DNA from: Klebsiella phage VB_KpP_HS106 | Length of the DNA: 64,000 bases | Sequence record: OP764672.1 | Direction: 5' to 3' (one strand) | In this document: one piece after another, positions 4,264-58,369 of the stretch | Layout: each line of letters starts with the position of its first letter | Position numbering within the stretch: the stretch's first letter is position 1 | The notes under the pieces: generated by a model | Database searches by the model: none | What the model was told of the DNA's origin: nothing | The model's input: only the letters and a program-made list of their open reading frames with translations | Made by a program: the position numbers and the translations under genes

Positions 4264-4264
4264 T

Positions 4265-4519
4265 ATGAGCTACTATGCTGTATTTGGGGATATTCACCCC
4301 TCACTAATGGTTAGAGTAGATGAAGCTGAAATTAAAGCTATTCAAACTAAACTAGCCATTGGTATTAAACCAGAGGACATAAGACTACAGAACAAGATGC
4401 GTGATGGTAGCAGAAATCTGGGGACTCAAGATTATCTAATTCTCAATGATACTGAGTACGCTATTATAAGCAAAGGTCAGTATCTGTGTCTGGAGAGACT
4501 GGACAATGACTACTTCTAA
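4265..4519 (+). CDS. Early protein with L7/L12-CTD-like motif (IKAIQTKLAIGIKPEDIRL)
   Basis: Family motif. Confidence 0.5.
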   Translation: MSYYAVFGDIHPSLMVRVDEAEIKAIQTKLAIGIKPEDIRLQNKMRDGSRNLGTQDYLILNDTEYAIISKGQYLCLERLDNDYF

Positions 4520-4546
4520 CCAAGTATTTAACTGGCATTCTAAGAG

Positions 4547-4801
4547 ATGCTAGGTGAAGGGACTATATCTTATTATAGTGACTTCAACATTGGCATTAAT
4601 GCCACTATTACTATCACCAAATTCAATGTAGCACTGGAGAAGTTCCCACGTATTGCAGTGGTAGACTTCCCAGCTTCGCTAGATGGTTTTTATAAAAAGA
4701 ACTTCACTATCAGAGTAGATATGCGTGAAATTAAAGCTCTGATGGCTAAAGTAGCCATTGGAGTCCCAGTTATCCTTGAACAACGGATCTCATTCTCATG
4801 A
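4547..4801 (+). CDS. Early protein with L7/L12-CTD-like motif (IKALMAKVAIGVPVILE)
   Basis: Family motif. Confidence 0.5.
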   Translation: MLGEGTISYYSDFNIGINATITITKFNVALEKFPRIAVVDFPASLDGFYKKNFTIRVDMREIKALMAKVAIGVPVILEQRISFS

Positions 4802-5058
4802 TCGATGTAAATATTACACTGGAACAATGCCAGCTGGCTTATGAAGGTGGTATGGATGAGTTAGCTCTGAAGCTATTCACCCGTGCTGTAAGCCATTTGT
4901 GTGCAAATGTGGATGAGACTGAAGCACTCAATGTAGTAGCTGAAATCCTCACTGAAGACTGTATTGATACTCTTCATGAATATCAGGCTCTCATTATCTC
5001 TGATCCGGCAGAACATGCTGCTTATGAAGATATCATCTCGTCCATCTTTCTTATTTAA
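4798..5058 (+). CDS. Acidic early hypothetical protein; its 3' end lies in copy 1 of the 127-bp duplication
   Basis: ORF with ATGA overlap to the upstream gene. Confidence 0.45.
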   Translation: MIDVNITLEQCQLAYEGGMDELALKLFTRAVSHLCANVDETEALNVVAEILTEDCIDTLHEYQALIISDPAEHAAYEDIISSIFLI

Positions 5059-5060
5059 GA

Positions 5061-5079
5061 CATTGCCCACAGGGCAATG
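5061..5079 (+). promoter_or_regulatory. Hairpin cattgccc-aca-gggcaatg (8-bp stem, 3-nt loop), copy 1: candidate vRNAP promoter
   Basis: Same cccacaggg core as the hairpin at 498-514. Confidence 0.35.
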
Positions 5080-5187
5080 AATGCAAAGGCAATCCTGCCT
5101 GTTCGAATATCAGGCTCTCATTATCTCTGATCCGGCAGAACATGCTGCTTATGAAGATATCATCTCGTCCATCTTTCTTATTTAAGA

Positions 5188-5206
5188 CATTGCCCACAGG
5201 GCAATG
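5188..5206 (+). promoter_or_regulatory. Hairpin cattgccc-aca-gggcaatg, copy 2, ~60 nt upstream of the codon-optimised gene at 5268
   Basis: Identical to copy 1. Confidence 0.35.
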
Positions 5207-5267
5207 AATGCAAAGGCAATCCTGCCTGTTCGTTCTTCATTTCATATTAACTATCGAGGTATTTATC

Positions 5268-5558
5268 ATGGCTTTTCAGAAAAACACTGCTGCAAGCAAC
5301 ACTTCCAATTCCTCTGCTAACAACGCTGCTGCTCCTGCCGAGCGTAACGTTGGTGGCTATCTGAACATCGGCGTCAAAGGCCGTGATGGTCAGGTTCGTC
5401 GTCTGGGCCAGGGTGGCCGTGGCATCGCTCTGCGTGAAGATCACCCGGTTGAAGGTGCAGTACTAACCTTCCTGCGTGAGCACGGCGTAGAAGCCCTCTC
5501 AGAGCGTCTGGTAATCACCTTTGGTGATGCTAAGGCACTGGAAAACTTCGAACTGTAA
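5268..5558 (+). CDS. Early protein (96 aa) with codon usage typical of highly expressed genes (CGT/CTG/GGC/AAC/GAA), Ala/Asn/Ser-rich N-terminus
   Basis: ATG with GAGGT RBS. The longer 5208 start lies inside the duplication. Codon bias is visibly different from neighbouring ORFs. Confidence 0.55.
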   Translation: MAFQKNTAASNTSNSSANNAAAPAERNVGGYLNIGVKGRDGQVRRLGQGGRGIALREDHPVEGAVLTFLREHGVEALSERLVITFGDAKALENFEL

Positions 5559-5565
5559 TCCATAT

Positions 5566-5584
5566 GCCCAGCCTTGTGCTGGGC
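5566..5584 (+). terminator. Hairpin gcccagc-cttgt-gctgggc followed by tattta
   Basis: Perfect 7-bp stem after the stop at 5558. Confidence 0.4.
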
Positions 5585-5604
5585 TATTTAATTGAGGATA
5601 TACC

Positions 5605-5955
5605 ATGGCTAAAGAGAAAAACTGGAATGACCGTTGGGGTAATGAAGCTAAATCACGTAGACGAGGCTCCAGATATCGTTGGAGTATTAAAGAGTTTCAG
5701 GATACTGATACCTCTACTCATATTGCCAGTAAAGGCAGTAATAGCAGTCTCTGTGTGCTTATCACTAAGACTCTGGTTAAGCAGATACTGATGCGTAAAG
5801 CACTGGGATTAAAAGAATTTAGACTGAATAAGATGATCACCTGTAATGGTGAACAGCTGCCTAAATATCCTATGCCCAATGTGCTGATAAACCAGAGTAT
5901 CTGGGTATCTGCCAAGTATATCAACAAAGACATATGGGAGTTCTATCTTGAATGA
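5605..5955 (+). CDS. Early protein with L7/L12-CTD-like motif (ILMRKALGLKEFRL)
   Basis: Family motif. GAGGA RBS. Confidence 0.5.
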   Translation: MAKEKNWNDRWGNEAKSRRRGSRYRWSIKEFQDTDTSTHIASKGSNSSLCVLITKTLVKQILMRKALGLKEFRLNKMITCNGEQLPKYPMPNVLINQSIWVSAKYINKDIWEFYLE

Positions 5956-6253
5956 TTCATGGGAAGGCCTTGTAGGCAAGAGTATTACTTCTGGCTTTGA
6001 TGGACATGTATATATCGTCCTTGAAGAGTCATGGCTTAAACAACTCCGTACCCAGTATATGCTGGGTATTAAGGAACCTTTACTCAGGCTTCCGGGAGTA
6101 ATAGGTAAGTACAAAACCAACAGTGAGTACAGGCTTAATACTGGTTACTTCCCTGAAGGGATAGCTAGTTCTAAACCAAGAATAATAGCTGACAGGATCA
6201 ATGAACCTGGCTGTGAATGGCAATTACGAGTAGTAAGAGGAGTTAACGGATGA
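5948..6253 (+). CDS. Early protein with L7/L12-CTD-like motif (LKQLRTQYMLGIKEPLLRL)
   Basis: Family motif. Confidence 0.5.
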   Translation: MNDSWEGLVGKSITSGFDGHVYIVLEESWLKQLRTQYMLGIKEPLLRLPGVIGKYKTNSEYRLNTGYFPEGIASSKPRIIADRINEPGCEWQLRVVRGVNG

Positions 6254-6528
6254 CTGCTGAACTTAAACCAGCAAAATTACATACTTACTGTAAGTTTTGC
6301 AAAGCTAATGGTGTTAAACGTGTAGCTAACTGGATGAGCAAATATGCTCCCAGAGGTGGCATGAGAGACACCTACAAGCATTATGCATGTACTGAACATA
6401 AACACCTCATTGAGGATACCGATCCTAACAGGACTCGTGTGGCTGAAAATGCTGAACTGGCTAAAGCCAGAAAAGAAGTGGATGACCACATGACAGAAGC
6501 TGACTATCAAACATGGGGAAGATTGTAA
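6250..6528 (+). CDS. Small Cys/His-rich (zinc-ribbon-like) protein
   Basis: CKFCK...YACTEHKH motifs. ATGA overlap upstream. Confidence 0.45.
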   Translation: MTAELKPAKLHTYCKFCKANGVKRVANWMSKYAPRGGMRDTYKHYACTEHKHLIEDTDPNRTRVAENAELAKARKEVDDHMTEADYQTWGRL

Positions 6529-7535
6529 TGCAACATAAATGGTTACCAGTTGAGGAACTTCAGGCCATCAACGAACGTCAGTTCAACAGGAAACATATTG
6601 ATGGTTATATCCGTAAAGAGCTGTTTGAAGACCCTGAATGTAACCTTTTAGATAAGGTAGAACAGGGTGTATCTCTGTTAAACCAGTGGCTCGAAGGTCA
6701 GTATTATGACTCTAAAGCTGTACGCCTTAACCACCTCAAATCCCTTGATCTGGAAGCCATTGTGAAAGAAGTGTTCGTGGGAATCATGTATTTCCCTGAA
6801 CCTACTCCAATGGTCAACGTAGTAGGCCAGCTGGCTTCCAGACTGGGTTTCGATGATAAACGTGACAGCATTCAGACTATGGCTGAAATAGTAGCTGTCC
6901 TCACGGATACTGACGTATATGACATTAACAAGCCTCATCCTAAAGCATCTCTGTATATCGTTAGCAATATTGGGTTGCCTGACCAGTTGGCTCAATTCAT
7001 TGAGCGTTCGTGTTATTTACCACCACTGGTTTGCCCACCCAAGAAGCTTACCCATAACATGGATACTCCTTACCTTACTTATTCATCTGATAGCCTTATT
7101 CTAGGGGGATCATTCAATCACCATAACGAGGATATCTGTCTGGATGTAATCAACAGCCGTAATGCTGTGCCTTACTCTCTGGACATAGAATTCCTCTGTA
7201 ACTATGAGGAAGAACCTACATTTGATCTCAATGAGATCGATGAAGAGAAGCTCCAGAAACACCGTAAGAAACCTCTCACACCGTGGGAGAAGGCTGATCT
7301 GGTACGTAAACAGAAAGACAACTGGATGCGTTATAAACGCCAGTCGTACTACTTCTATAGCCTGATGGCAAACCAGGGTAATGAGTTCTACTTTGGCAAC
7401 AAGGTAGACAAACGTGGACGTATCTATACCCAGGGTTATCACATCAACCTTCAAGGCACTCCCTTCAAGAAAGCCAGTTTAAACTTTGCCAATAAAGAGC
7501 AAGTAACTGGTGTGCCTGATGAATTTAAACTTTAA
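6528..7535 (+). CDS. N4 RNAPII-like small subunit: N-terminal half of a T7-like single-subunit RNA polymerase
   Basis: DKRGRIYTQGYHINLQGTPFKKASL matches T7 RNAP DWRGRVYAVSMFNPQGNDMTKGLL. The start is taken at the TAATG overlap with a GGGGAAG RBS. Confidence 0.8.
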   Translation: MQHKWLPVEELQAINERQFNRKHIDGYIRKELFEDPECNLLDKVEQGVSLLNQWLEGQYYDSKAVRLNHLKSLDLEAIVKEVFVGIMYFPEPTPMVNVVGQLASRLGFDDKRDSIQTMAEIVAVLTDTDVYDINKPHPKASLYIVSNIGLPDQLAQFIERSCYLPPLVCPPKKLTHNMDTPYLTYSSDSLILGGSFNHHNEDICLDVINSRNAVPYSLDIEFLCNYEEEPTFDLNEIDEEKLQKHRKKPLTPWEKADLVRKQKDNWMRYKRQSYYFYSLMANQGNEFYFGNKVDKRGRIYTQGYHINLQGTPFKKASLNFANKEQVTGVPDEFKL

Positions 7536-7552
7536 ATAGAGAGACTTAACTA

Positions 7553-8827
7553 ATGGTAATCAACACTGCTTATGGCCCAAACTTCAAATATATGTCTGGT
7601 TGGGAATATATGTGCATCGACGTAGCCAACTACTACGGACTGGACAAGAAACTGTTCGAAGAACGTATTCAGTGGGTGTACGACAACATCAAGGATCTGG
7701 AATCCAAAGTGCAGGATGCTGAAACCCCTGAGCTGTACCATAAAGCTGTCATGACTTTACGTCGTGTACAGCATGGGGAAGCTGTAGGCAATATCACCTA
7801 TTGGGATGGCTGCTGCTCTGGCATCCAGATTATGAGTGCCCTCACAGGCTGTGAGAAGGGTGCTTACAACACTGGTTGTATTGACCCAGAGAAACGTATG
7901 GATGCCTACAGCAACACCACAGACGCCATGAATGGCGTTCTGAAGCGTAAAGGTCTGGATAGTATCCAAGTACCTCGTAGCCATATCAAACAAGCTGTAA
8001 TGACCTCTGGTTACGGTTCTAAGGCTGTGCCTAAGAAGGTATTCGGTGAGGGCGAGATGCTGGACTACTTCTACGAAGCAGCCCACATCATCGCTCCTGG
8101 TGCGTTCAACCTCATGGATGAACTCCTGGGTTCCTGGCGTCCTTATGCTCTGGAACACGTTCTGGAGCTGCCTGATGGCTTCATTGCTAAGATGAAAGTC
8201 ATGGAAACTCTGGAAACCAGAATTGAAGTAGACGAGCTTGATCATGCTACTTTCACCATGGAATACAAAGAGAACCGGGGTACAGAGAAAGGCCGTGCTA
8301 ACGTAGCCAATACCATTCACTGCTGTGATGCCTACTTGCTGCGTGAACTGGAGCGTCTGTGCAACTATGATCCAGAGCTGGTAGCAGAGGCGCAGAAGAT
8401 GCTGGAAGCACGCCTACTGGCTCATAGCATGGGTATGCAGGCTGAAGAAGCTACTGATGATATGGTACGTCGTATCCGTCTGTGGGACGAGAATAAGCAG
8501 TCTTCTATGGTTATTCTCAACGATATCAACTGGAGCAACTACATGCAGTTACCTATCGACTTAGCTCGTGATGTAATGCGTAAAGTTAACTTCATGCTGA
8601 CTTACAAACCATTCCCTGTGGCTACTGTTCACGATGCCTTCGGATCCCACCCAAACAACTGTAACGAAGTACGGTACTGGTACAAAGAGATGCTGGCAGA
8701 ATTCGCTGATAGCACCATTCTACAATCTCTGATGAACCAGCTATATCAAACTACTGACGGTGTGTATACCAAGTTGTCTAACAACCTCGGAGATAAGATA
8801 CGTGGATCCAACTATGCTCTTTCATAG
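7553..8827 (+). CDS. N4 RNAPII-like large subunit: C-terminal catalytic half of a T7-like RNA polymerase
   Basis: DGCCSGIQIMSALTG matches T7 DGSCSGIQHFSAM (motif A). TVHDAFGSHP matches IHDSFGT (motif C). Confidence 0.85.
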   Translation: MVINTAYGPNFKYMSGWEYMCIDVANYYGLDKKLFEERIQWVYDNIKDLESKVQDAETPELYHKAVMTLRRVQHGEAVGNITYWDGCCSGIQIMSALTGCEKGAYNTGCIDPEKRMDAYSNTTDAMNGVLKRKGLDSIQVPRSHIKQAVMTSGYGSKAVPKKVFGEGEMLDYFYEAAHIIAPGAFNLMDELLGSWRPYALEHVLELPDGFIAKMKVMETLETRIEVDELDHATFTMEYKENRGTEKGRANVANTIHCCDAYLLRELERLCNYDPELVAEAQKMLEARLLAHSMGMQAEEATDDMVRRIRLWDENKQSSMVILNDINWSNYMQLPIDLARDVMRKVNFMLTYKPFPVATVHDAFGSHPNNCNEVRYWYKEMLAEFADSTILQSLMNQLYQTTDGVYTKLSNNLGDKIRGSNYALS

Positions 8828-8857
8828 TATGATTCTTACTCATTTGAGGAGAATACT

Positions 8858-9298
8858 ATGGCTAGTGTAGATGAGTACATGAAGCTCAACTCCCCCTTGC
8901 AGAAGCGGGGGGAGGAGCTACAGAAACAAAGCAGTAAAAGCTGGGAAGCATTAGGTAATCCCACCAGCATTTCAGAGTATCTGGATGCTGTGGGTAAACT
9001 TGCTGCCCAGCAAAAAGCAGTATATGACTCCAGCCAACCACCTGTAGTTTCACAGCTATGGAGAAACCTGAATCCAGCTACATCAATTCCTGACGCTATA
9101 GGTAACTTCTATAATGCCAGTCAGAATGATGACTATGTGGGAATGGGTGTAGCAGCAGCTACAGGTATTCCATTCATCCCGGCTTTCAAAGTATTGAAAG
9201 CTATTAACCCACTGATGAAACTTGATTTAGCTAAATCAGGGGCCAGAGCAGTTACCAATGAGTTAGGTAGTCGATTAAGTGACTACTTCAGTGAATAA
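8858..9298 (+). CDS. Hypothetical protein (146 aa)
   Basis: ORF with GAGGAG RBS, followed by a strong terminator. Confidence 0.5.
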   Translation: MASVDEYMKLNSPLQKRGEELQKQSSKSWEALGNPTSISEYLDAVGKLAAQQKAVYDSSQPPVVSQLWRNLNPATSIPDAIGNFYNASQNDDYVGMGVAAATGIPFIPAFKVLKAINPLMKLDLAKSGARAVTNELGSRLSDYFSE

Positions 9299-9304
9299 CT
9301 AAAG

Positions 9305-9334
9305 ACCTACCCTTCGGGGTAGGTTTCTTTTTTT
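9305..9334 (+). terminator. Rho-independent terminator acctaccc-ttcg-gggtaggt + TTCTTTTTTT
   Basis: GC-rich 8-bp stem with a T-run. Confidence 0.8.
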
Positions 9335-9344
9335 AAGGAATACT

Positions 9345-9566
9345 ATGGCTACTTACAACACTCCCAATGCTCGCTATGTACCACTAGAGCTGGTTAAGTT
9401 AATCAAAACCAGAGCAGCTATTGGGCTTAAAGAAGCACGATTGGAGATTCAGTATGATGATCCAATGAATCCTACAATACCCCAAGGTGTACCCCCAGGA
9501 ACCCATTGTAGTGCTCACAGAAGCCTGAAAACCAACATGATCATATGGGAGGCTAAATGGCCGTAA
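9345..9566 (+). CDS. Small protein with the clearest L7/L12 C-terminal-domain-like segment (LVKLIKTRAAIGLKEARLEI)
   Basis: Compare E. coli RplL [21 protein letters not shown]. Confidence 0.55.
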   Translation: MATYNTPNARYVPLELVKLIKTRAAIGLKEARLEIQYDDPMNPTIPQGVPPGTHCSAHRSLKTNMIIWEAKWP

Positions 9567-9805
9567 CAGGGTATGTGTACCCACAAGTGGTGATACCAGT
9601 TGCTCTGTATAGACTGGTTAAAACCAGAAGTGCTGTAGGACTCACAGAGGCTGAAATAGTCTTACCTATAGGGTGTGAATTAGGATCCTACAACGAGGAG
9701 GATCTACCCGAAGAGTTTGCTACTTGGGAAACTTTGCAAAAGTACCAAGTGATCATGGGCGAAACAGTAGCGTTTAAACAGTGGAATGCAATATGGACAC
9801 GATAA
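9557..9805 (+). CDS. Small protein with L7/L12-CTD-like segment (LYRLVKTRSAVGLTEAEIVL)
   Basis: Family motif. Confidence 0.5.
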   Translation: MAVTGYVYPQVVIPVALYRLVKTRSAVGLTEAEIVLPIGCELGSYNEEDLPEEFATWETLQKYQVIMGETVAFKQWNAIWTR

Positions 9806-10185
9806 AGTACATGGTGCCAAGAGGTACTGTTAAGAGAATCAAAACAGCTAATGCCATAGGCATACAAGAGCTGGAGCTGAAGCCAGTTACTGTCATTGCA
9901 GCAGTAGAAGGGCAATTTGAAGTCATACATAAAAATTCCATACCAGGAATTGAAATGGACTTAGAGTCTGCCCCACTAGGCTGGATCTACTGGAAACCAG
10001 GCAACGAGGAGCAACCTGTGTACAACTCTATGAAGATGTTAGAGGAAGTGCTTAGAAGACAGGAAATAAACAACCCTAAACAATTTATTAGTGATCGGTC
10101 TATTCGGGAGATTAAAAGTACATCTGACATAGCTGATGCTTTTAACTTCTTCAATAAAATATATAGCGATAATACTAAGCTTTGA
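9781..10185 (+). CDS. Protein with L7/L12-CTD-like segment (VKRIKTANAIGIQELELK)
   Basis: Family motif. Confidence 0.5.
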   Translation: MECNMDTIKYMVPRGTVKRIKTANAIGIQELELKPVTVIAAVEGQFEVIHKNSIPGIEMDLESAPLGWIYWKPGNEEQPVYNSMKMLEEVLRRQEINNPKQFISDRSIREIKSTSDIADAFNFFNKIYSDNTKL

Positions 10186-10200
10186 TGCCCTCCGGGCATC
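10184..10200 (+). promoter_or_regulatory. Hairpin gatgccc-tcc-gggcatc (7-bp stem, 3-nt loop TCC, i.e. GGA on the template strand)
   Basis: Perfect inverted repeat overlapping the stop at 10185. Its loop is identical to the GGA loop of the N4 P2 promoter, recalled from the literature. Confidence 0.3.
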
Positions 10201-10236
10201 TTTGCGAGTGTTTCCGTCAACGGTAAAGAGGATCCT

Positions 10237-10521
10237 ATGGACGCAAATCAAGCAGCAGCTTTCATTAATAAATTTCCTGGTTTCATCGCAGAGGTGCCCA
10301 CTGCTGGGCATGTAGCGGTTAAATCAGTGTTCTGGGCAGGTAAACTCATGTACTTTCCAACCAAAGGCACAGTTGATGCTAATGGTGTTCAGGCATTAAC
10401 TGATGTCTCAAAACATATTGAGTTTCTTAAAGAGCAGAAAGGTGGAATAGGTACAGCACATATTATTTTATGTGCTCTTACTGTAGAAAACTTTCATAAG
10501 TATATGTTGAAGTGGGCTTAA
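10237..10521 (+). CDS. Hypothetical protein (94 aa)
   Basis: ORF with AGAGGA RBS. Confidence 0.45.
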   Translation: MDANQAAAFINKFPGFIAEVPTAGHVAVKSVFWAGKLMYFPTKGTVDANGVQALTDVSKHIEFLKEQKGGIGTAHIILCALTVENFHKYMLKWA

Positions 10522-10527
10522 GCTTTT

Positions 10528-10542
10528 GTGACCTCCGGTCAC
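10528..10542 (+). promoter_or_regulatory. Hairpin gtgacc-tcc-ggtcac (6-bp stem, 3-nt loop TCC)
   Basis: Perfect inverted repeat 7 nt after the stop. Same loop as the hairpin at 10184. Confidence 0.3.
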
Positions 10543-10698
10543 TTCTGTGAGTCGCTCGACTCATTACCATCACTTAATTCTTATCTATGCCTTTGGCAGG
10601 GGAGCCAGTCTCCCCACATTTTCATTGGATTACAGTGCTTTGTATCTTTACAAACCAGTGTGATTCACATAGTGTTAATCACCTAGACAGGAGGAACT

Positions 10699-10851: not shown

Positions 10852-10876
10852 CGACAAAACAAGGCATACTCGAAAT

Positions 10877-47683: not shown

Positions 47684-50600
47684 TTAGTTTGCCATTCTGA
47701 ACAAGTTCCAAGGCATTGGGATAGTCAAGATGCTGCTACCCTGCAATACAGAAGTTGAGAATGGGTTACCCAAGTTACGTGCAAACAAGGGTTCCATAGC
47801 ATCAGGTGCTGCTGAGAACTGCCCTGTGATAGCCATGTGTGCCATAACAGAGGCCGGGCGTTTGTCCATCAGGTAGAACATTGCACGTTGGATACGAATA
47901 CGATACTTCGTAAACATTGTGATCCCCATATCATCCAGATACTGGCGAGTAGCTGTAGCTGGAATGTCATAGTTAACAAAAGCATCAGAGGCACGTTGTA
48001 AAGCTTCAGTATGACTCAGACGATCTCTGGCATGTTCTGTCAGGTGTTTATACAGAGCATACTTAGCAGCAAAGTCACTGAACTGTGCAGCATCACTCAA
48101 GAATTTGTGAGGTGCAGTACCCTTGTCAATTACAGCCCAGCGAGCAGCTGTTACAGCAGAAGCTGGAAGGTGAGCAGATACCTCATTAAATTTCTTACGG
48201 ATCTTAGAACCATAAGTGTAACCATCAGCATCAGGCTGAACGTCTTCTACGATGGTAGGCATCATGCCTGCCTGAATAAACTTAGCCAGTGGGTTAGCAT
48301 TCAAGCGATCCTGAGTCTCATTGATCAGGGATTCCATCTGAGCAAAGTTACCAATACCAGCACGTTGCTGTTGCTGATACTTAAGTAGCAGTGAATACTG
48401 TTTACGGTAATCAATACCAGCAACGAGAGCAGTACGGATATCTTTAACCATGCGTACAGGGTTAACACCATAAGCAGCCAGCAAAGCAGTGTTGGACATA
48501 ATGTTACTGAACTGGGTTTTCAGATTACGAATAACGATCACGTCCTTATAGGTCTGCATAAATTCCTGAATACCACGCTCACCTTTAATTACGTAGGCTT
48601 TAGCCTTATCACCAAAAGCAGCTTCAAGTAAACCAGCAGCGACACCCTGAGCAATATTACGTTGCTCTGGATCTGCATCCAGGATATTAGCCAGAGAGTA
48701 CTTACGGAAGCCAAAGGTCAGGTTAACCAGATCATTACGAATGTACATACGATCACTACCCCACAGAGAGGCAGCTTTAATACGTGCTTCGTAGGGCATC
48801 ATTGCCCAGATCTCACGACCACGTTCAGAAGGTGCATCAGGCCCAATCTCAAAGTAAGCATTAGGATTCTTCAGGATATTAGCTGTAGAGTCTTCATGCA
48901 GAGCTTCCAGGATCTTAGCATTCTGGCTTGGAGCATCACCTTTATCGATATTCTGACCAGCTAAACGACCTACAAGATCAGCAAAGTCATTATTACGATC
49001 AAGGAAAGTATCACGAGTATTATGGGTAGCCATATAACGGAAGTCCATGATATGACCATCAGTGCTTAACACAGGCACTACATAGTTATCCTGAACTTGA
49101 GAAGGATCGAAGGCAGTGTGGGACAGTGCTTCACGTCCTCGCACGTCTGCGTAGGACGCTTGCCTTAACTGTTCTAACTCGTCAGCTCGAACACGATCAG
49201 CAACAGCACGATCCCCACTTAGGGAAGAACCTTTACGCTGGCTTCCAGTTAAGCTGAAAGTACCAGAGACGGTTCGTTGATACCCATTCTCTTTGGTCAC
49301 ATACAGCACACGTCCAGAGTGTTTTGACAAAGAGTCCTGGGACAGTGGGGATACTTTTTGATATCCCATGTTCACCAGTGCTGCTTCATCTGCACTCCCC
49401 GACTCAACCGCACGTAAGTCATGGTGAGGATTGGTATCTTCAGGCAGATAGCCTTTAATGCGAGACAACTGGTTACCAGCAAACAGCGTATTAGCAGAAT
49501 CCTCGATCAGGTTCGCATAAGTAGCCATCAGCATTTTAATGCCATTGTCTTTACCTCGTGCAAGCTCACGTTCCATTACAGCAGCAGTGCGAACACGGTT
49601 TTCAGTCTTGGTGTAGCTTAGAGCGTACATCGAAGCCAGAGCATCAATGGCGTTCACTTCATCAAGAGTCGGTTCGATACCTACTGTGGAATAGTGAGTA
49701 GCAGCTCCGGTAGCAATAGCTTTTGCATTCAGAACTAAATCACGTCCCAGGGTATTTCTGCCAGTAGCCATCCAGAATCCCAGAGCCTTGGCACGAATGA
49801 TCTTATCATTACCGTTAGCATACTGGCTAATGGTTTTCTCAAGCTTATTGATCTGTTGCTTACGGTAACCAGTATTAGAAACCAGTTTATGTAAGTTATT
49901 CAGGTTCATACCTTCAATGTGCAGCACAGACTGAAGATCAGTACGAAGCAGTGAATAAGTCATTGCTGTACGATCTTCTTTATTCAGGTCTTGCCCATTG
50001 TTATCAAACATCTCATTTAAGTTCTTAGCAGTAACAGCAGCTAAGGTTGCACGATCCTGTTCAATACGTTTAGTAGAACGTAACAGGGATTCATGCAGAG
50101 CACGAACATCATCAGCATTTGTTGCTTCAGTCAGAATGGAAGCCAGAGAACCTTCTGGAGTATTAGGGGCATTAAAGTCCCGGAACTCTTTGATAGTTTC
50201 TTTCAGGTTACCTAACTGATCACGAGCAGCCAAACCTGCAACTTTGCCCATAGCATTAAGAGCATTGTTGGAGGACTGATCAATACCAGTAGCTTTAACG
50301 ATTTTACCCAGGAACTGTTTAGACTTAGCAGCAGCCGTATCTAAGGCATTCTCTACTTTGTCGATCCCACCAGTAAGAATATTCATGGTGGTATCACGGT
50401 TCTTAAGTTCAATCTGGATCAGCTTTTCAGCTAGTGCTTGGGCACGAGCATTTGCAGCTTGCCCTTGATGGGTATTGGTCAACATACCAGAGACTGTATT
50501 AACAGCCTGGTTAAAGTAAGCAGTAGCTTGTTCAAAGGCAGTATTGCCAGAGTCCTTACCATCTTCCATCTGGAAGCCAAGTAAGTTACTGGTGTCTTCA

Positions 50601-53600
50601 TGCCCAATAGCCATAGCAACAAAACGAGACAGATGCTGGGACTCACCAGAGTCATTCGTTACATCAAACAGATAATTCCATTTCTGTTGAGCAGCTCGTT
50701 TTTCTGCTTGAGTTGCCTGATTCCAGTTTCCATTGTGGAAGTCTTCTGGTTTCAGGGATTGTTTGGCAGCTTGCCAGGTACGACGAATCTCACGGTTAAC
50801 TGGTGAAGTGAAACCAGAAGCCAGAGATTCAGATACAGCAGTCTCAATGGCCTCCACAGCAAAGGCTTCCTGATTAGTCAGTACAAACCCATTGCTCAGT
50901 GCTTCGGTGCTGACAGGGGCTTTCCCAGTGGCTACAGCCTCATTCCATACTTGACCAGGAGTGTAATTCTCATTGGCATTCTGGGTGACTCTTGAGCCTA
51001 AAGCACCGTAAAGCTGATCCGCTACAGTGGATATTACATTACGGAGGTTACCTGTGAATTGTGCTGAGTTAGTCTTGCCACCTGTTGAAGCCAGGTTATC
51101 AAAGATATCCACATGGCTGAACTTAGCTACCTGATCAGCAGCACTGTTAGTGTTACTCATAGGATGGCTAATGGAAGACACAGGACTTTGAATAGCAGCA
51201 GGGTTAATTGCTTGAACCAGATGTGCAGTATCGAAGGTCAGTGCTTCCAGTGCAGTAGTAACCCGAGCATTAACAGCTCGACCAGTTACAGCAGCAAAGA
51301 TGCCTGACATTTGATCCACAAACTGTTTAAAAGCAGTACCTAACCACCCACGGTTACGACCTGAAATTTCAGGTACACCAGTGATGGTATCAAGGTAACG
51401 TTGGAATTCCGGGTTAGTCATACCCCAGGAAATAAACTCATCCACGTTAGCCAAAGCAGGGGCAAACTGCTGAGTCAATTGAGGATCAGCTGAAACCAGC
51501 TTAGTCACTCTACCCATTAGCTTCTCTGTACGAGCCAGTACAGCTTTTACTTTTGGATTTGAATCAGCAGTAGCAATTGCACGTCCCAGAGCAATGTGAG
51601 TCATCTCATGCAGCAAGACTTCAGGTGAAGCCTCTTTGCTGAGTGACAGGTTAACCTGTGCAGTGTTCTTATCTTGATAAGACCATGCAATGGCATCACG
51701 GTTCTGGGGCAGTGACTGCCCCTTAACATTCTTAGGCATAGTCTGCCCATCCAGTACGTTCACCACAGCATCAGCTGGAATCAAACCAGAAATGAGGTTG
51801 TGGAGTTCGTTATACACTGGGTTAGCAAACTTACCTTTGGTACGAGCCATCACCTCAGAAGCTGACACAGAGCCTGTAGAGGCCGAAGCCTCATACAGGT
51901 ATTGTCTCATCTTGTCAGGATACTGGCTGGCTTCAGCCTTTGGGGCATTGCCCTTAGAGAACATGTCAGAGATACGTTGTAAGCCAGTAGCACGGCTACG
52001 TTTCAGACGTGCAATCTCGTCACCAATCTTCTTACGATCAGCATCAGTGATCAGATACTCGCCACCCTCAGTGCCATACTGGTTAACAGCATAGACTTCA
52101 GAGAGAGTTTCCAGTTTCTTAATATCACGATCATAAGCCTGGTTAAGGATTGTGTTCAGAGCAGCTTTCATGTTGCCCTTGAACTCTTTACCCAGAATCT
52201 TAGTCTTCATGGCATCCAGAGCTTTCTTAGCTGCAACCTTGTCATTGGTAGACAGGTTAGCATCAGCCAGACTACGAACTTCAGTCAGCAGTGCAGCAGC
52301 AGCCAGATGTTGAGGATGGTAAGAAACCACAGCATCAAACATAGCTTTGTTCTGGATACGAGCACCTTTCAACACATTGTCAGGAGACAGGATGTTAGCA
52401 TCATGCACATTCTGGCTTTCGATCTTGCTGATCACATCAGAGCTAATTGCAGCATCAGTACCCTGAGTAACGTTAGCACCCATAGCAACACCAGGATTGG
52501 TCAGCTTAGTCTCAGTCACAGTAGACTGGGTAGATTTATACCCACCTACCAGACCTTGACTCAGCAGCATCCCATTAGCATCCATTGCTGGTTTAGGGTT
52601 AGCAGCTTCTTTGAAGTAGATATCAATGCTGGTGGCAGGGGATTTAGCAGTAAAGGCTTTCTCCACCTTAGCCATTGGGTAACCAGAAGCTTTGGTATTC
52701 TCGGACAAGACACCAGTTGCAGATGGCATATTAGGAATCATGTTAGACAGTGTATCCAGATCTACCTGAGTGAGTCCTTCTAGTGGGGCACCCTTAGCAT
52801 CCACAGGGATTTTACCCTCAGCAATACGTTTCTTCAGCAGTGCAGCTTTAGCAGCATTGTAACGAAGGTTAGCCAGAGTAAAGGTAGTGTTAACCAGACT
52901 GGTATTAGCATCACGAGATGCAATGAAGTCAGCAGCAACCTCATTAACAGCAGTCTCTGTAGCAGATCCGCGAGTCTGAGAATCCACATCAATGATGCGT
53001 TTAGTTTGAGCTGGATTAAGGCTGAACTTAACCAGACCATCAGCAGTACGTGGTAGGTTCACTTTCTGGCCCAAAAGTACAGAAAGGTTTTTACTTACCT
53101 CAGCATAAGCCTTGGCAAAGTCTGCTTTGTTATTGCTTTTAGCCAGTGGGATCAGGGAACCGATCTTAGAGTAAACATCCTCTACAGTAGCTCGACCCAT
53201 AGCAGCTTTCAGTGCTGGAATACCAGCAGAGTAGTTGAATGGGGTAGCCAGAGTCTTGGCCTTAGAACGAGCACCATAACCAGTAGAGAAGTATTCTAGC
53301 GCCTGGATCTGACCTTGCTGACTGGCAGGTGCATTGGTTTTGTAATCAGCCCAATGCTGTCGCATAGCATCACCCAGCAGCTCGTAGTAATCCTGACCAC
53401 CCAACTCACGATAAGTAGGCATGTTGGTAATGTTGTCACCTTCACGGTAAATACCACCACGCTTCAGCAGATCGAAGTCAGCAGAGCCATTTAGGATATT
53501 GGTAAGGATAGGGCCGTTAGTAACACCATCTGACTCCATTTGAGCCAGTAGCTTAACGGAGGACTTACCAGACTCCAGAGCAGTAGCATACTGAGCCAGG

Positions 53601-56600
53601 TTATGCAGGGCAGCAAAAGACTGACCATTCATACCATACTCAGCCACAGCATTCTTAATGACGTTGGTATCAGCAGTAGTAGCTGAACCAGCGATCACTT
53701 TCTGCATGGCACGTACAGCCTTAATGTTCTCTGGTTTACGCAGGTAATTCTGGAAAGCAGGTAAGAAGGTAGCATAGGTCTGCTTATCAACAGACTTCAG
53801 TTTCTTACCATCAGCACCAATTACAGGGGCTTCTTCCATACCCTGAGCCAGAGATACGAGGAACAGGCCATATTGGGTAGGCTTACCCTCTGCATCCAGT
53901 ACAGCAGCATTAGGTTCGACTTTGATATCAACCTGGTGAGCACTTAAGCCACCCATAGCACGGTGAACTTTGGATCCTTGTGGGTTGAATTCCGAAGCCA
54001 GATCACCAATACGCTGGTTAGTCCAGACTTCCATAGGCATCCAGAAAGGCTTGTTACCAGTACGTGCAGCAAAGTCCATACCCATTTCGATAGAACGTTG
54101 GATATCAGCATTCTTGGCTTCACGACCTTTCTTGAAGATCTCCATTTCATTAGGTACATCAGCATCAGTACGTACACCAAAGATATGTTGCAGGGCAGCA
54201 TTATCTACAGTGGACATGGTTTGCATAGCACTTACCACACCCTGATCAATGGTGTAGTCATACTGCATAGCTTTACTGATACGAGCAGCCAAAACAGAAG
54301 GAACTTCACGGTTCATTTTACCGAAGACTTTCTGTTTGAAACCAGCAGGCTTAGTGGTCAGAACCTCACGTACAGCAGGATCATAACCAAACAGCTTAGA
54401 CATAAGGGAACGGGTATCTTTCATTCCATTCTTAATGTCAGAGATAGCTTCAATAGCTACTGGTTTACCCTCTGCATCAAAGTTACGTGCAGGACGGCTA
54501 AACACAATCTTGTGCTTGGCATCATTAGGGGAAACACCAAAGTCATTCTGGAAAGCCTGTGCAGCTTCTTTAGCCGACTGTTCATCCAGACCCATGATTT
54601 GCAGATCAAAGTACTCTTTAGCAGTCATTAAAGACTGTTCCATATAGCCATTGGAATACATGGCATGGAGAGCATAAGCACCCAAAGCATTCTGCAATTT
54701 GCTGGCACGGTTAGGATCAACATCAGCACGTTTAGCGAAGCCCATAGCCTGATAGATACGTTGACCCAGTTGGGACATGATCAAGTCTTGGCGATAGCCA
54801 ATATCAGCCATACGAGACATAGCTTGTGGAGTTAACTGATCTTCTTTAATACGCAGAGTTTTAGCTACTTCACCCTGGTTCAGGAACATCTTATCCCCAT
54901 TCTCACCAAGCCAGGAGAAGATACCTGCTGCAATACCAGTTTTAGTATTGGAGTCAAAGTTACCATTCTCATCCAGGATAAACTGAGCAAAGTCCTGATA
55001 ACGATACTCAGGGGCTTTAGTACGGATGATGTTATCCAGGTTAGATGTGATGTGATCGTGGAATTCCACAAACTGTTTCAGCAGAGCTTTCTGTTTAGCA
55101 CCTTCAGCTTTCGACTCACTGATATGCTGTTTCAGGAAACGGTTAACTTCAGTGAAGCTACCAGTATCCACAGCAGTTTTAAGAGTATTGATGAAGTCTT
55201 TCACTGCTACCAGTGGGCTACCAAAACCTGGACGAACTCGCTGATTGAAACCAGTAAGCACAAGGTTCTGTAAGCCTTTAGGTTCAGCCAAAGCTTTCTC
55301 ACGCAGAGCTTTCAGAGACTCACCAACTTTACCAAAGATACTCAAAGCACCATTAGCTACATTGTCTTGCTGAGTCTCAGTCAGGGTATCAGTGTTGGTA
55401 ACAACATCATCTACGTTAACTGGGGCAGTCTGTTGAGACTCTGAACCAGTAGACTCATTATCAATATCAGCCTGAGCATTCTCAGTTTGAGTAGCAGTCT
55501 CAGCCTGTGAACGTTGGATCTCATTCTCTTGAGCTTTAGGCTTAAAGGAGTCATCCAGTTTACGGTGAGGAGCATCAACCCCACGATTCTGGTTAGTAGC
55601 CAAATCAGCACGACGAGTCCACTCACGATCCAGAGCATCCAGGTTACGAGCCAGTACAGGATTAGTGTCAGAAGACATAGCTTGTTGAGTAGTAGCCATA
55701 ACCTTTTCCAGCGTTGCCTGATCCATTGCACGAATATCTCGTGTGGTCAGTGGGCTGATTGTGGGTTGTGCTTGTTGTTCTTGTGCTCCTGCCTCTCCTG
55801 CTACAGTAGCTGCACCCTCTGGCTGCGCCTCCGGGTTTGCTACTTGCTCAGTCGAGCCAGTCACATTTTGGTTAGTAGATGGGTTAGCAATACCTTCCAT
55901 ATACTGACGAGTGGCAGTGATAGCTTTGGCTTCATTAACGATATTGTTAACCAGACCAGTAGAGCCTTTGTGGATAGTAAAGCCACCATTCTTAGCCTGT
56001 GCTTTAGCATCCAGACGTTTGCCAGTATTCAACTCCCAACCATTAGAAGTTTTCAGGATCTGGTAAGACTTACCATTCTGTTTAGCTTCGTTCAGATACT
56101 GTTGAGCAATATCTGCTTTAGCAGTATGGGAAGTTTCAAAGTTATTGATACCAGTCATCAGGGACTGGATACGGTTAGTATCACCAGCCTGTACAGCAGT
56201 GTTAATACCCTGTTGGTAATCACCCAGTGACAGGTTATTAGAAGTGGATTTGAAGATCTCACTATTAACCTTAGAACCAGTCTTAACAGCATTCTCTGCA
56301 ACTTTGGCATCAGCTAATGCACGAAGCGTACCCAGTTCAGCAGGGGTAGCATTAATAGGAGCATTACGCACAAACTCTTGCAGGTCTTCATTGGTATAAG
56401 ACATTGGGTGACTGATAATGTCAGAAGCTGTCGGGTTCTCTGGTTTAGCTGTATTGGTATTCATACCAGTAGCTGATGAGAACTTGCCAAACTCAGACTT
56501 AGCCTGATCCAGTACTTCAGCAGAACGAGTAGCAGACTGTGCCAGTTCCTCCTGAGAAGGCAGGGCATCCAGTTGTTGCTGTGCAGCATCACGAGCTTCA

Positions 56601-58369
56601 GTCTGTTGAGCCAGGATAGTCTGTAACTGGTTAACAGCATCAGGATCTGCATTAGGATCGGTGCTGAGTTGATCCAGTCTTTCCTGAATAGCAGGAATAA
56701 ACTTACCAGCATCAGCAAGAGTACGTTCAGCAGTGGCCCTCTGGTTAATCATATCCAGTTTATTCTGGTGATCATTCTGAGCAGCATCCATAGCTGATTG
56801 AGCCTGAGATTGAATCTCAGCCTTCTGTTCATCAGTGGTAGCATCAGTGTTACGAGTCCACTCCATACCAGCACGACGAATTGCAGCAGCCGGGTTATAA
56901 CCTTCTGACTGAGGATTCATTAAGTCTTCTGGAGCGGTATTACGGGCAGCTTGACCTACAGGATCCTGGGTTTCAGTACGTTTCTGCATAGCCTGAGCAG
57001 CAGTATTGGCTACTTCACCAGCAGTACCAAGTGCAGCACGAGGAGCACCAAAACCAGTAGCAGCAGCAATCCCCTGGAAGAAAGCAACATCATTACCTTT
57101 GGTATCCCATTCGTTTTTACCTTTGGCATAGTTCTCCTCAATCTGGTTTTGAGCACCAGATACCAGACCTTCAGTTAAGGCGTTCTTAGCAAGGTCAACG
57201 GTAGGAGCAGCTACACGCGCAAGAGCAGCAGCAGCCGTAGAGCTGCGTGGTGCGATGCGCTGTGCTGCGTTCACCAGACGATCAGCAACTCCAGTAGGTA
57301 ATACTTTAGATCCTGGAAGCATAGCAGTACGGTTAATGACACTTTCTGCAAAGTTCAGAGCACCATCAACAACACCCAAACCAGTACCGATAGCTACATC
57401 TTTAGCTGTTGGAAGCTGACCATCAGAGGCTTTACGTTGGGTATCCAAGTACTGAGACAATACTGAACCACCCTGCATAGCAGAGGAAGCAATCATACCT
57501 GGAATACCACCAACCATATAAGGGGCAGACTCAACCATAGTCTGACCAGCAGCACCAGGGTTACGGGCAATAGCAGCTAAACCAGCAGCAAATTTATCAA
57601 GCCCTGATTTACCCTCAATTGATTTCTCAATATCAGCAGCAGCTTGCTGCATCTGAGTAGGGTTAGCCAGTTTCTCAAGATTGTCATAGCTACTCTGGTT
57701 TTGAGTCTTCTGACGTTCATTGATAGCATCCAGACGCTGACGAAGAGTCTGATTACCCATCTCTGGTACACCATATTGATTTACTTCAATAGGCTGTGTC
57801 CACCAGGCACCCTGACGATCTAACAGAGCATTATCAGCTTCAGTACCTTTACCTTCCTGAACACGACGATAAGCATCCAGTGCATCGTTAGGAATAGAAG
57901 CTTGATCCAGTACATTGCCTAGTGTTTTAAAAGTTTTATCTGTTTTACCTGCAAGACCGTTAACAGCATCAGTAAGAGCTTTGCCATAGTTAACAAAGGT
58001 AGAAGCTGCCCGATCAGTTATAGAAGATGTTTCAGGATCTAAGAAGTTGGTAGAAGACCAACCATAGTCTGAATCTTTTGCGGCTACCTGTTTAGCTAAT
58101 GCTGACTGTTCATTATTGATTCGTTTGAGTCGAGCAATTTCGCCTTCTTCCGTAGGATACATACCCTGTCCTGTGAGGTTATTCAGGATACGAGTAGAAG
58201 CATCATTCACACGTTGGGCGATAGTTGGTTGGGTAGGTGCAGGAAGTGCTTGAGCAGCTTCCTGACCTGTTACCTGTTGTGGGACAAGAAACTTGTCCAG
58301 AGGGGATGAGTTTTCACCAGCCATCTGAGAATTCCTTAATAGTATGGAGTCCTCAGATTGTAACCTCAT
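47684..58369 (-). CDS. Virion-encapsidated RNA polymerase (N4 gp50-like vRNAP, 3561 aa)
   Basis: Size. T7-like motifs: FNPQGS, motif B RSKAKTLATPFNYSAG, motif C VHDA. TAATG-coupled to the upstream gene. Confidence 0.9.
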   Translation of the reverse strand: MRLQSEDSILLRNSQMAGENSSPLDKFLVPQQVTGQEAAQALPAPTQPTIAQRVNDASTRILNNLTGQGMYPTEEGEIARLKRINNEQSALAKQVAAKDSDYGWSSTNFLDPETSSITDRAASTFVNYGKALTDAVNGLAGKTDKTFKTLGNVLDQASIPNDALDAYRRVQEGKGTEADNALLDRQGAWWTQPIEVNQYGVPEMGNQTLRQRLDAINERQKTQNQSSYDNLEKLANPTQMQQAAADIEKSIEGKSGLDKFAAGLAAIARNPGAAGQTMVESAPYMVGGIPGMIASSAMQGGSVLSQYLDTQRKASDGQLPTAKDVAIGTGLGVVDGALNFAESVINRTAMLPGSKVLPTGVADRLVNAAQRIAPRSSTAAAALARVAAPTVDLAKNALTEGLVSGAQNQIEENYAKGKNEWDTKGNDVAFFQGIAAATGFGAPRAALGTAGEVANTAAQAMQKRTETQDPVGQAARNTAPEDLMNPQSEGYNPAAAIRRAGMEWTRNTDATTDEQKAEIQSQAQSAMDAAQNDHQNKLDMINQRATAERTLADAGKFIPAIQERLDQLSTDPNADPDAVNQLQTILAQQTEARDAAQQQLDALPSQEELAQSATRSAEVLDQAKSEFGKFSSATGMNTNTAKPENPTASDIISHPMSYTNEDLQEFVRNAPINATPAELGTLRALADAKVAENAVKTGSKVNSEIFKSTSNNLSLGDYQQGINTAVQAGDTNRIQSLMTGINNFETSHTAKADIAQQYLNEAKQNGKSYQILKTSNGWELNTGKRLDAKAQAKNGGFTIHKGSTGLVNNIVNEAKAITATRQYMEGIANPSTNQNVTGSTEQVANPEAQPEGAATVAGEAGAQEQQAQPTISPLTTRDIRAMDQATLEKVMATTQQAMSSDTNPVLARNLDALDREWTRRADLATNQNRGVDAPHRKLDDSFKPKAQENEIQRSQAETATQTENAQADIDNESTGSESQQTAPVNVDDVVTNTDTLTETQQDNVANGALSIFGKVGESLKALREKALAEPKGLQNLVLTGFNQRVRPGFGSPLVAVKDFINTLKTAVDTGSFTEVNRFLKQHISESKAEGAKQKALLKQFVEFHDHITSNLDNIIRTKAPEYRYQDFAQFILDENGNFDSNTKTGIAAGIFSWLGENGDKMFLNQGEVAKTLRIKEDQLTPQAMSRMADIGYRQDLIMSQLGQRIYQAMGFAKRADVDPNRASKLQNALGAYALHAMYSNGYMEQSLMTAKEYFDLQIMGLDEQSAKEAAQAFQNDFGVSPNDAKHKIVFSRPARNFDAEGKPVAIEAISDIKNGMKDTRSLMSKLFGYDPAVREVLTTKPAGFKQKVFGKMNREVPSVLAARISKAMQYDYTIDQGVVSAMQTMSTVDNAALQHIFGVRTDADVPNEMEIFKKGREAKNADIQRSIEMGMDFAARTGNKPFWMPMEVWTNQRIGDLASEFNPQGSKVHRAMGGLSAHQVDIKVEPNAAVLDAEGKPTQYGLFLVSLAQGMEEAPVIGADGKKLKSVDKQTYATFLPAFQNYLRKPENIKAVRAMQKVIAGSATTADTNVIKNAVAEYGMNGQSFAALHNLAQYATALESGKSSVKLLAQMESDGVTNGPILTNILNGSADFDLLKRGGIYREGDNITNMPTYRELGGQDYYELLGDAMRQHWADYKTNAPASQQGQIQALEYFSTGYGARSKAKTLATPFNYSAGIPALKAAMGRATVEDVYSKIGSLIPLAKSNNKADFAKAYAEVSKNLSVLLGQKVNLPRTADGLVKFSLNPAQTKRIIDVDSQTRGSATETAVNEVAADFIASRDANTSLVNTTFTLANLRYNAAKAALLKKRIAEGKIPVDAKGAPLEGLTQVDLDTLSNMIPNMPSATGVLSENTKASGYPMAKVEKAFTAKSPATSIDIYFKEAANPKPAMDANGMLLSQGLVGGYKSTQSTVTETKLTNPGVAMGANVTQGTDAAISSDVISKIESQNVHDANILSPDNVLKGARIQNKAMFDAVVSYHPQHLAAAALLTEVRSLADANLSTNDKVAAKKALDAMKTKILGKEFKGNMKAALNTILNQAYDRDIKKLETLSEVYAVNQYGTEGGEYLITDADRKKIGDEIARLKRSRATGLQRISDMFSKGNAPKAEASQYPDKMRQYLYEASASTGSVSASEVMARTKGKFANPVYNELHNLISGLIPADAVVNVLDGQTMPKNVKGQSLPQNRDAIAWSYQDKNTAQVNLSLSKEASPEVLLHEMTHIALGRAIATADSNPKVKAVLARTEKLMGRVTKLVSADPQLTQQFAPALANVDEFISWGMTNPEFQRYLDTITGVPEISGRNRGWLGTAFKQFVDQMSGIFAAVTGRAVNARVTTALEALTFDTAHLVQAINPAAIQSPVSSISHPMSNTNSAADQVAKFSHVDIFDNLASTGGKTNSAQFTGNLRNVISTVADQLYGALGSRVTQNANENYTPGQVWNEAVATGKAPVSTEALSNGFVLTNQEAFAVEAIETAVSESLASGFTSPVNREIRRTWQAAKQSLKPEDFHNGNWNQATQAEKRAAQQKWNYLFDVTNDSGESQHLSRFVAMAIGHEDTSNLLGFQMEDGKDSGNTAFEQATAYFNQAVNTVSGMLTNTHQGQAANARAQALAEKLIQIELKNRDTTMNILTGGIDKVENALDTAAAKSKQFLGKIVKATGIDQSSNNALNAMGKVAGLAARDQLGNLKETIKEFRDFNAPNTPEGSLASILTEATNADDVRALHESLLRSTKRIEQDRATLAAVTAKNLNEMFDNNGQDLNKEDRTAMTYSLLRTDLQSVLHIEGMNLNNLHKLVSNTGYRKQQINKLEKTISQYANGNDKIIRAKALGFWMATGRNTLGRDLVLNAKAIATGAATHYSTVGIEPTLDEVNAIDALASMYALSYTKTENRVRTAAVMERELARGKDNGIKMLMATYANLIEDSANTLFAGNQLSRIKGYLPEDTNPHHDLRAVESGSADEAALVNMGYQKVSPLSQDSLSKHSGRVLYVTKENGYQRTVSGTFSLTGSQRKGSSLSGDRAVADRVRADELEQLRQASYADVRGREALSHTAFDPSQVQDNYVVPVLSTDGHIMDFRYMATHNTRDTFLDRNNDFADLVGRLAGQNIDKGDAPSQNAKILEALHEDSTANILKNPNAYFEIGPDAPSERGREIWAMMPYEARIKAASLWGSDRMYIRNDLVNLTFGFRKYSLANILDADPEQRNIAQGVAAGLLEAAFGDKAKAYVIKGERGIQEFMQTYKDVIVIRNLKTQFSNIMSNTALLAAYGVNPVRMVKDIRTALVAGIDYRKQYSLLLKYQQQQRAGIGNFAQMESLINETQDRLNANPLAKFIQAGMMPTIVEDVQPDADGYTYGSKIRKKFNEVSAHLPASAVTAARWAVIDKGTAPHKFLSDAAQFSDFAAKYALYKHLTEHARDRLSHTEALQRASDAFVNYDIPATATRQYLDDMGITMFTKYRIRIQRAMFYLMDKRPASVMAHMAITGQFSAAPDAMEPLFARNLGNPFSTSVLQGSSILTIPMPWNLFRMAN

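Follow-up and report, generated by a model that had tools for sequence, protein, structure and literature searches.

The heterodimeric RNA polymerase II (RNAPII) is a defining and well-studied feature of N4-like phages, known from the genetics, biochemistry and crystal structure of the coliphage N4 enzyme and from interaction data on that of the Pseudomonas phage LUZ7. In N4, the two subunits gp15 and gp16 form a heterodimer and align to parts of the single-chain T7 RNA polymerase (RNAP) without overlap (PMC4496689), and the heterodimer has been crystallized (PDB 6DT7, chains A and B). Biochemical work on the transcription of single-stranded templates by such a heterodimer, together with a single-stranded DNA (ssDNA)-binding cofactor, exists only for N4 (PMC4496689) and LUZ7 (PMC7145618). 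Here we describe the corresponding locus in Klebsiella phage VB_KpP_HS106 (OP764672.1), using a stretch of 64,000 nucleotides (hereafter the window) out of a genome of ~76 kb. Two adjacent open reading frames (ORFs), ORF1 and ORF2 (Table 1), almost certainly encode, on the strength of their homologies, the small (gp15-like) and large (gp16-like) subunits of a heterodimeric, T7-family RNAPII in an N4-like Klebsiella phage.

Profile searches placed ORF1 in phrog_2166 (“N4-like RNA polymerase”, E 5.6e-111) and ORF2 in phrog_2051 (“RNA polymerase”, E 2.9e-137). ORF2 also matched Pfam PF00940 (E 1e-18; 67.9 bits against a gathering cut-off of 22), and ORF1 alone gave no Pfam match. As sequence comparisons, the PHROG and Pfam matches of the two ORFs are far beyond chance. 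Both ORFs likewise aligned to the crystallized N4 chains. Residues 154-331 of ORF1 matched residues 108-268 of the 269 residues of gp15 (6dt7_A, “RNAP1”, E 6.8e-22), in an alignment that extends to the C-terminus of gp15, and residues 16-424 of ORF2 matched gp16 end to end (residues 6-404 of 404; 6dt7_B, “RNAP2”, E 1.5e-47). Against T7 RNAP itself, BLASTP aligned ORF1 166-321 to residues 270-447 (E 4e-5) and ORF2 16-157 to residues 456-642 (E 4e-8), and in the T7-type profile phrog_414, positions 227-424 were covered by ORF1 and positions 426-595 by ORF2. Together, the two ORFs cover contiguous, non-overlapping regions of T7 RNAP. We took the junction and the motif positions from an alignment of the concatenated subunits of the window phage, N4 and LUZ7 with T7 RNAP, in which the junction between the subunits falls at T7 residue ~454 in all three phages alike.

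The landmarks of T7 RNAP (gp1, PF00940), namely DX2GR, motifs A, B and C, the H784 equivalent and the C-terminal foot, occur in the same order in the window enzyme, which belongs to the same fold family. The catalytic motifs A, B and C are all intact in ORF2, and DX2GR is intact in ORF1. Within ORF1, PPLVCPPKKLT aligns with T7 PCVVPPKPWT, and the block DKRGRIY...INLQGT, from residue 294 onward, aligns with DWRGRVY...FNPQGN at T7 residues 421-441. In ORF2, NTIHCCDAY corresponds to the H784 region, and the C-terminal foot reads ...NYALS as against ...DFAFA in T7. Unlike T7 RNAP, which is one chain of 883 amino acids, the window enzyme is divided between two polypeptides. Most of the N-terminal domain and of the thumb is missing from it, as are several insertions in the fingers, and an insertion of ~80 amino acids separates its H784 region from motif C, as in its N4 and LUZ7 counterparts.

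A preliminary description of the locus, made from the letters alone, had read it as a T7-like RNAP split over two adjacent ORFs and bearing the signature of the heterodimeric middle RNAP of N4. The gp15/gp16, PHROG and T7 alignments bear out the split, with halves that are contiguous on T7 RNAP, and the homology to 6dt7_A and 6dt7_B, together with the shared junction, supports the N4 signature. The ORF coordinates and the separation by a stop and 17 nucleotides were correct, as was the combined length of ~760 amino acids, below that of T7 RNAP (335 + 424 = 759 against 883). Motifs A and C do lie in the second ORF, as WDGCCSGIQ and VHDAFG (Table 1). The same description had also placed the specificity loop in the first ORF, equating it with the RGR-Y...QG block. 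That block is indeed located in ORF1, but it is the DX2GR region and not the specificity loop. The loop of T7 RNAP, which we take to be residues ~739-770, aligns in ORF2 at approximately residues 210-245.

Compared with N4 RNAPII (gp15 + gp16; 6DT7/6DT8/6DTA), the locus shows the same adjacent early gene pair split at ~T7 454, the same allocation of DX2GR to the small subunit and of motifs A, B and C to the large subunit, and the same occurrence of a minimal T7-family enzyme in a phage with a giant virion RNAP. Nevertheless, identity to the N4 subunits is only ~30-31%, and for ORF1 and gp15 the 31% identity applies to residues 114-326 only. The window small subunit is 66 amino acids longer than gp15 (335 against 269), its first ~113 residues are unalignable with gp15, and the spacer between the genes is 17 nucleotides, compared to 47 in N4. 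Similarity to LUZ7 RNAPII (gp20 + gp22) extends over the full length of both subunits, at 44% identity to gp20 over ORF1 residues 9-335 and 40% for the large subunit over its full length. It includes the N-terminal domain of the small subunit, which is LUZ7 gp20-like and unlike the N-terminal part of N4 gp15. LUZ7 differs in its host, which is Pseudomonas rather than Klebsiella, and in the 107-amino-acid gp21 between its subunit genes, which has no counterpart in the window phage.

The locus is shared with many other phages. Twelve GenBank Klebsiella phages match it at 91-95% nucleotide identity, among them vB_KpP_FBKp27 (FBKp27), pKP-BM327-1.1, vB_KpnP_P184 and GADU21 (Schitoviridae, Efbeekayvirus and relatives). 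These relatives annotate both genes, as RNA polymerase small and large subunits. The small subunit is 98-99% identical to theirs at the amino-acid level, and the “RNA polymerase small subunit” of FBKp27 is annotated at the same position. Searching more widely by tblastn with ORF1, we obtained small-subunit matches from 458 phage records, practically all of N4-like phages; outside the Klebsiella phages, this RNAPII had its closest relatives in LUZ7-, LIT1- and CB1-like phages. A giant virion RNAP is a hallmark of N4-like phages, and the window encodes one (Table 1) as well as rIIA, DNA polymerase, primase and other N4-like genes. By sequence, the window phage is an N4-like Klebsiella phage of the Schitoviridae, close to the Efbeekayvirus FBKp27, and its DNA shares about 95% identity with that of FBKp27, pKP-BM327-1.1 and others.

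The RNAPII genes are preceded, 970 nucleotides upstream, by a gene for a 96-amino-acid protein that resembles Drc of LUZ7 (gp14, crystallized as 6qlc_A; PMC7145618). The protein matches phrog_6271 at E 1e-12, with residues 1-90 of 96 covered, and LUZ7 gp14 belongs to the same family (E 5.2e-37). BLASTP aligned it to Drc directly at ~32% identity over 69 residues (E 1e-4), and in this alignment Y31 and R45 fall on Drc Y23 and R37, residues singled out for ssDNA binding (PMC7145618). Both Y31 and R45 are invariant in 22 homologues. An AlphaFold model of the protein had moderate confidence (mean predicted local distance difference test score, pLDDT, of 65.8; 75-86 for residues 30-90). In a fold search of 350,542 PDB chains with this model, 6qlc came out on top, although the match was weak (E 0.059, probability 0.93, template modelling score 0.43-0.49). 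The ORF has no Pfam match, and its orthologue in GADU21 carries the annotation “ssDNA binding RNA polymerase cofactor”. We regard the protein as a Drc homologue by sequence and probably an ssDNA-binding cofactor of RNAPII. Drc homologues have been reported in Litunavirus (LIT1), Luzseptimavirus (LUZ7) and Pectobacterium CB1-like phages (PMC7145618). A passage of the same paper, citing Molodtsov and Murakami (2018), has the N-terminal domain of the small subunit proposed to recruit the cofactor. The LUZ7-type N-terminal domain of ORF1 agrees with a Drc-type cofactor.

We considered whether the two ORFs might be one gene in disguise. They lie in different reading frames, and stops occur in all three frames at the junction: at 7533, 7551 and 7557 in the frame of ORF1 and, upstream of ORF2, at 7517, 7520, 7526 and 7547 in its own frame. 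Because the last of the latter (7547-7549) lies 3′ of the ORF1 stop (7533-7535), no single frameshift fuses the ORFs, and neither a single frameshift nor readthrough can join ORF1 to ORF2. Fusion by frameshift, a point raised with the preliminary description, is ruled out by these stop positions in both frames and by the identical junction in FBKp27. The shortness of the 17-nucleotide spacer is all that would speak for programmed frameshifting or readthrough into a single polypeptide, an explanation to which we give a vanishingly small probability, given also that ORF2 possesses its own ATG, that the N4 homologues are separate chains and that FBKp27 has 223 nucleotides and another ORF in between. 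Just as negligible is the chance that a single T7-like RNAP gene only appears split through a sequencing or assembly error, or through a recent pseudogenizing mutation at 7533. Such errors are a general possibility, and a perfect 127-nucleotide tandem duplication elsewhere in the window (4978-5231) could be an assembly artefact, but the difference in frame and the stops in all three frames at the junction again stand against this. The stop and the spacer (ATAGAGAGACTTAACTA) are base-for-base identical in FBKp27, and the split is kept in the 12 close relatives, N4 and LUZ7. Some relatives carry a whole additional gene between the halves, and the extra small ORF at this place in FBKp27 and LUZ7 cannot be reconciled with one gene that has been broken. 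In N4, moreover, RNAPII crystallized as two chains (6dt7 A and B). An error or a pseudogene is already refuted by these comparative data, and the separation of the subunit genes, each with its own stop and start and conserved in relatives, is genuine.

A different question is whether the N4-type polymerase works, like that of coliphage N4, with cofactors of the gp2/gp1 type. N4 is the family's prototype, homologues of gp2 diverge so far that a remote one could be missed, and a gp2-like gene might lie in the ~12 kb of the genome beyond the window. However, homologues of N4 gp1 and gp2 were not found in the 64-kb window, to which these negatives apply: tblastn of both proteins returned only noise at E > 3, outside the early region. 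N4 gp2 gave no BLASTP alignment with the 96-amino-acid ORF, and none of the upstream ORFs tested matched phrog_4099, the PHROG of N4 gp2. A Drc-family gene is present instead, and the N-terminal domain of the small subunit is of the LUZ7 type. We therefore consider a gp2/gp1-type system very unlikely here. The preliminary description had pointed to a possible small upstream gene for a gp2-like cofactor; a gene for a protein of ssDNA-binding type does lie upstream, but as a homologue of Drc rather than of gp2 or gp1. On the sequence evidence, this Klebsiella lineage is in the Drc-using, not the gp2-using, branch of N4-like phages.

Several points nonetheless weigh against an RNAPII heterodimer with a Drc-like cofactor. 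We infer the function of both subunits by homology only. The Drc assignment is built on a profile match of E 1e-12, a weak pairwise match of E 1e-4 and a weak, top-ranked fold match from a model with a mean pLDDT of 65.8, and phmmer of the 96-amino-acid protein against PDB sequences found no match. Nothing observed contradicts the identification of the ORFs as RNAPII subunits, and homology, collinearity with T7 RNAP, intact catalytic motifs, gene separation and genomic context are all directly observed at this locus.

For the proposed heterodimer with its Drc-like partner, a mode of action can be sketched from the biochemistry of N4 and LUZ7, from which we infer heterodimerization, expression timing, promoter type and cofactor use. 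The injected virion RNAP would transcribe the early genes at the left end, among them the two genes for RNAPII and that for the Drc-like protein, and the two polypeptides would assemble into one minimal T7-type polymerase. ORF1 would contribute the DX2GR motif as well as the N-terminal domain and a shortened thumb, while the palm and fingers would come from ORF2, together with its motifs A, B and C, the counterpart of the specificity loop and the foot at the C-terminus. The Drc-like protein, and not N4 gp2, would coat DNA that is unwound locally at middle promoters and bring in the polymerase, which would then transcribe the middle (replication) genes. Middle promoters of RNAPII are GC-rich hairpins in LUZ7 and AT-rich sites in N4, and we know of no reliable consensus for the lineage studied here.

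Table 1. Features of the RNAPII locus and its surroundings in the window (aa, amino acids; nt, nucleotides).
Feature	Position	Strand	Remarks
RNAPII small subunit gene (ORF1), N4 gp15 / LUZ7 gp20 homologue	6528..7535	+	335 aa; alternative in-frame ATG at 6513
DX2GR motif, DKRGRIY	7407..7427	+	ORF1 residues 294-300; = T7 D421-Y427; alignment with T7, N4 and LUZ7
ORF1 TAA stop and spacer	7533..7552	+	stop 7533-7535; 17-nt spacer 7536-7552, ATAGAGAGACTTAACTA
RNAPII large (catalytic) subunit gene (ORF2), N4 gp16 / LUZ7 gp22 homologue	7553..8827	+	424 aa
Motif A, WDGCCSGIQ	7802..7828	+	ORF2 residues 84-92; Asp = T7 D537
Motif B, RSHIKQAVMTSGYGSK	7976..8023	+	ORF2 residues 142-157; Lys = T7 K631, Tyr = T7 Y639
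Specificity-loop equivalent (approximate), in large subunit	8180..8290	+	concatenated alignment; low identity, approximate boundaries
Motif C, VHDAFG	8627..8644	+	ORF2 residues 359-364; Asp = T7 D812
Drc-like gene, probable ssDNA-binding RNAPII cofactor	5268..5558	+	96 aa; phrog_6271, BLASTP, fold match
Terminator-like hairpin	5566..5584	+	directly 3′ of Drc-like gene
Terminator-like hairpin	9303..9326	+	with T run
Candidate virion-RNAP early promoter hairpin, TTACCC-ACA-GGGTAA	499..513	+	
Candidate virion-RNAP early promoter hairpin, TTGTCC-ACA-GGACAA	3434..3448	+	
Candidate virion-RNAP early promoter hairpin, TTGCCC-ACA-GGGCAA	5063..5077	+	
Candidate virion-RNAP early promoter hairpin, TTGCCC-ACA-GGGCAA	5190..5204	+	identical second copy through 127-nt tandem duplication
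Giant virion RNA polymerase gene	47684..58369	-	3561 aa; phrog_2206 “virion RNA polymerase”, E 0, 1735 bits
Motif-sharing small ORFs	3863-4138, 4265-4519, 4547-4801, 5948-6253, 9345-9566, 9557-9805, 9781-10185	+	

The start of ORF1 deserves comment, as the reading from the upstream ATG at 6513 would give 340 amino acids. We consider the ATG at 6528 the likely start, because the stop of the preceding ORF runs into it (TAATG), because it is preceded by GGGGAAG, because residue 6 of the 340-amino-acid reading is where similarity to Pectobacterium/Kosakonia orthologues sets in, and because the FBKp27 annotation uses the same ATG. The upstream ORF (6250-6528, + strand) encodes 92 amino acids with a CxxC...CxxH pattern and belongs to phrog_9585, a family of unknown function; it had no Pfam match. 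The overlap of its stop with the small-subunit start suggests that the two genes are translationally coupled. The spacer in front of ORF2 contains an AGAGAG run that is weakly Shine-Dalgarno-like. An antisense ORF within the large-subunit gene (7757-8320, 187 amino acids) gave only sub-threshold noise matches, and we took it to be spurious.

The RNAPII genes are situated within a left-end block of small genes on the + strand, among which we identified candidate early promoters. Four hairpins (Table 1) make up a family with the consensus ATT(G/A)(C/T)CC-ACA-GG(G/A)(C/T)AAT, compensatory changes in the stem and conserved flanks, and the pattern had six matches, compared to 2.0 ± 1.6 in shuffled sequences. 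On the template strand, the hairpins have a stem of 7-8 bp and a TGT loop. A G is found 13-14 nucleotides 3′ of the centre of each loop, as described for the early promoters of LUZ7 (PMC9163698). The four hairpins are probable virion-RNAP early promoters, by analogy with those of N4 and LUZ7 (PMC3715699, PMC9163698). Sigma-70-like promoter matches are depleted in positions 1-11500 (12 against 31.9 ± 5.4 in shuffles) and there is an excess of terminator-like hairpins (16 against 6.7 ± 2.7), a combination that fits a region not transcribed by the host RNAP. The transcription unit of the RNAPII genes probably ends at the terminator-like hairpin downstream of them (9303-9326).

The layout around the Drc-like gene recalls that of LUZ7 (Drc = gp14, 6QLC), where the polymerase genes likewise have a Drc-family gene upstream of them, with a terminator-like hairpin behind it, even though the two proteins are only ~32% identical over the 69 aligned residues. 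Hairpin-type candidate early promoters are a further likeness, two of them in tandem before the Drc gene (PMC9163698). In the window, the tandem arrangement results from the perfect 127-nucleotide duplication (4978-5104 / 5105-5231), which spans the 3′ end of the ORF at 4798-5058 and the hairpin-bearing intergenic region upstream of the Drc-like gene. Unlike in the window phage, the unit is single-copy in 12 of the 12 GenBank relatives, and the duplication could be either a real promoter duplication or an assembly artefact. By doubling the candidate promoter, it may raise the dosage of the cofactor and so mirror LUZ7, where two tandem early promoters precede drc (PMC9163698).

Seven small ORFs flanking the RNAPII genes (Table 1) have in common the motif “K..K...AIG..E” (h-K-x-h-K-x3-A-I-G-h-x-E). 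Pairwise support from phmmer was weak and obtained for neighbouring pairs only (4265/4547, E 2e-4; 9345/9557, E 2e-5), and the seven may form a diverged paralogous family. Neither the ORF at 5948-6253, which is one of them, nor the adjacent ORF at 5605-5955 had a Pfam match.

The boundary between the subunit genes varies among the Klebsiella relatives. In FBKp27 and several others, unlike in the window phage, an ORF of 77 amino acids intervenes (223 nucleotides; FBKp27 7553-7786, corresponding to 7536-7565 in the window), for which the FBKp27 version gave no Pfam or PHROG match. It is absent from the window phage, pKP-BM327-1.1 and Tribble_ER49. LUZ7 has its gp21 at the same boundary, a 107-amino-acid ORF unrelated to that of FBKp27. 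The large subunit of the window phage starts with MVIN, as does the intervening ORF of FBKp27, compared to MQIN for the large subunit of FBKp27, and this match suggests that the 77-amino-acid ORF was gained or lost by precise recombination. We think it rather unlikely that the boundary is a hotspot of small-gene insertion and loss. Were it one, and were the cassettes mobile or RNAPII-modulating, this could have implications for the way in which the split of a single-chain T7-like RNAP arose.

Just 3′ of the large-subunit stop (~8821-9330), similarity to most of the relatives ends, and by sequence comparison this segment is a mosaic breakpoint. It holds an ORF of 146 amino acids (8858-9298) that is common only to pKP-BM327-1.1, and FBKp27 carries a 44-amino-acid ORF and a terminator there instead. 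The 146-amino-acid ORF had no significant family match, its Pfam matches being sub-threshold only.

The identification of RNAPII at this locus is correct but ordinary, since the enzyme is already known in this phage lineage. In all that was tested, it conforms to the definition of its family. Drc in place of gp2/gp1 is the only departure from the N4 prototype and is itself published. Apart from correct annotation, which is already in place in near-identical genomes of Klebsiella phages, the finding matters little. Its useful outcomes are that the window is identified as part of a Schitoviridae genome, that the motif in the small subunit is relabelled from specificity loop to DX2GR, and that, by sequence, this Klebsiella lineage takes its place in the branch of N4-like phages that use Drc.

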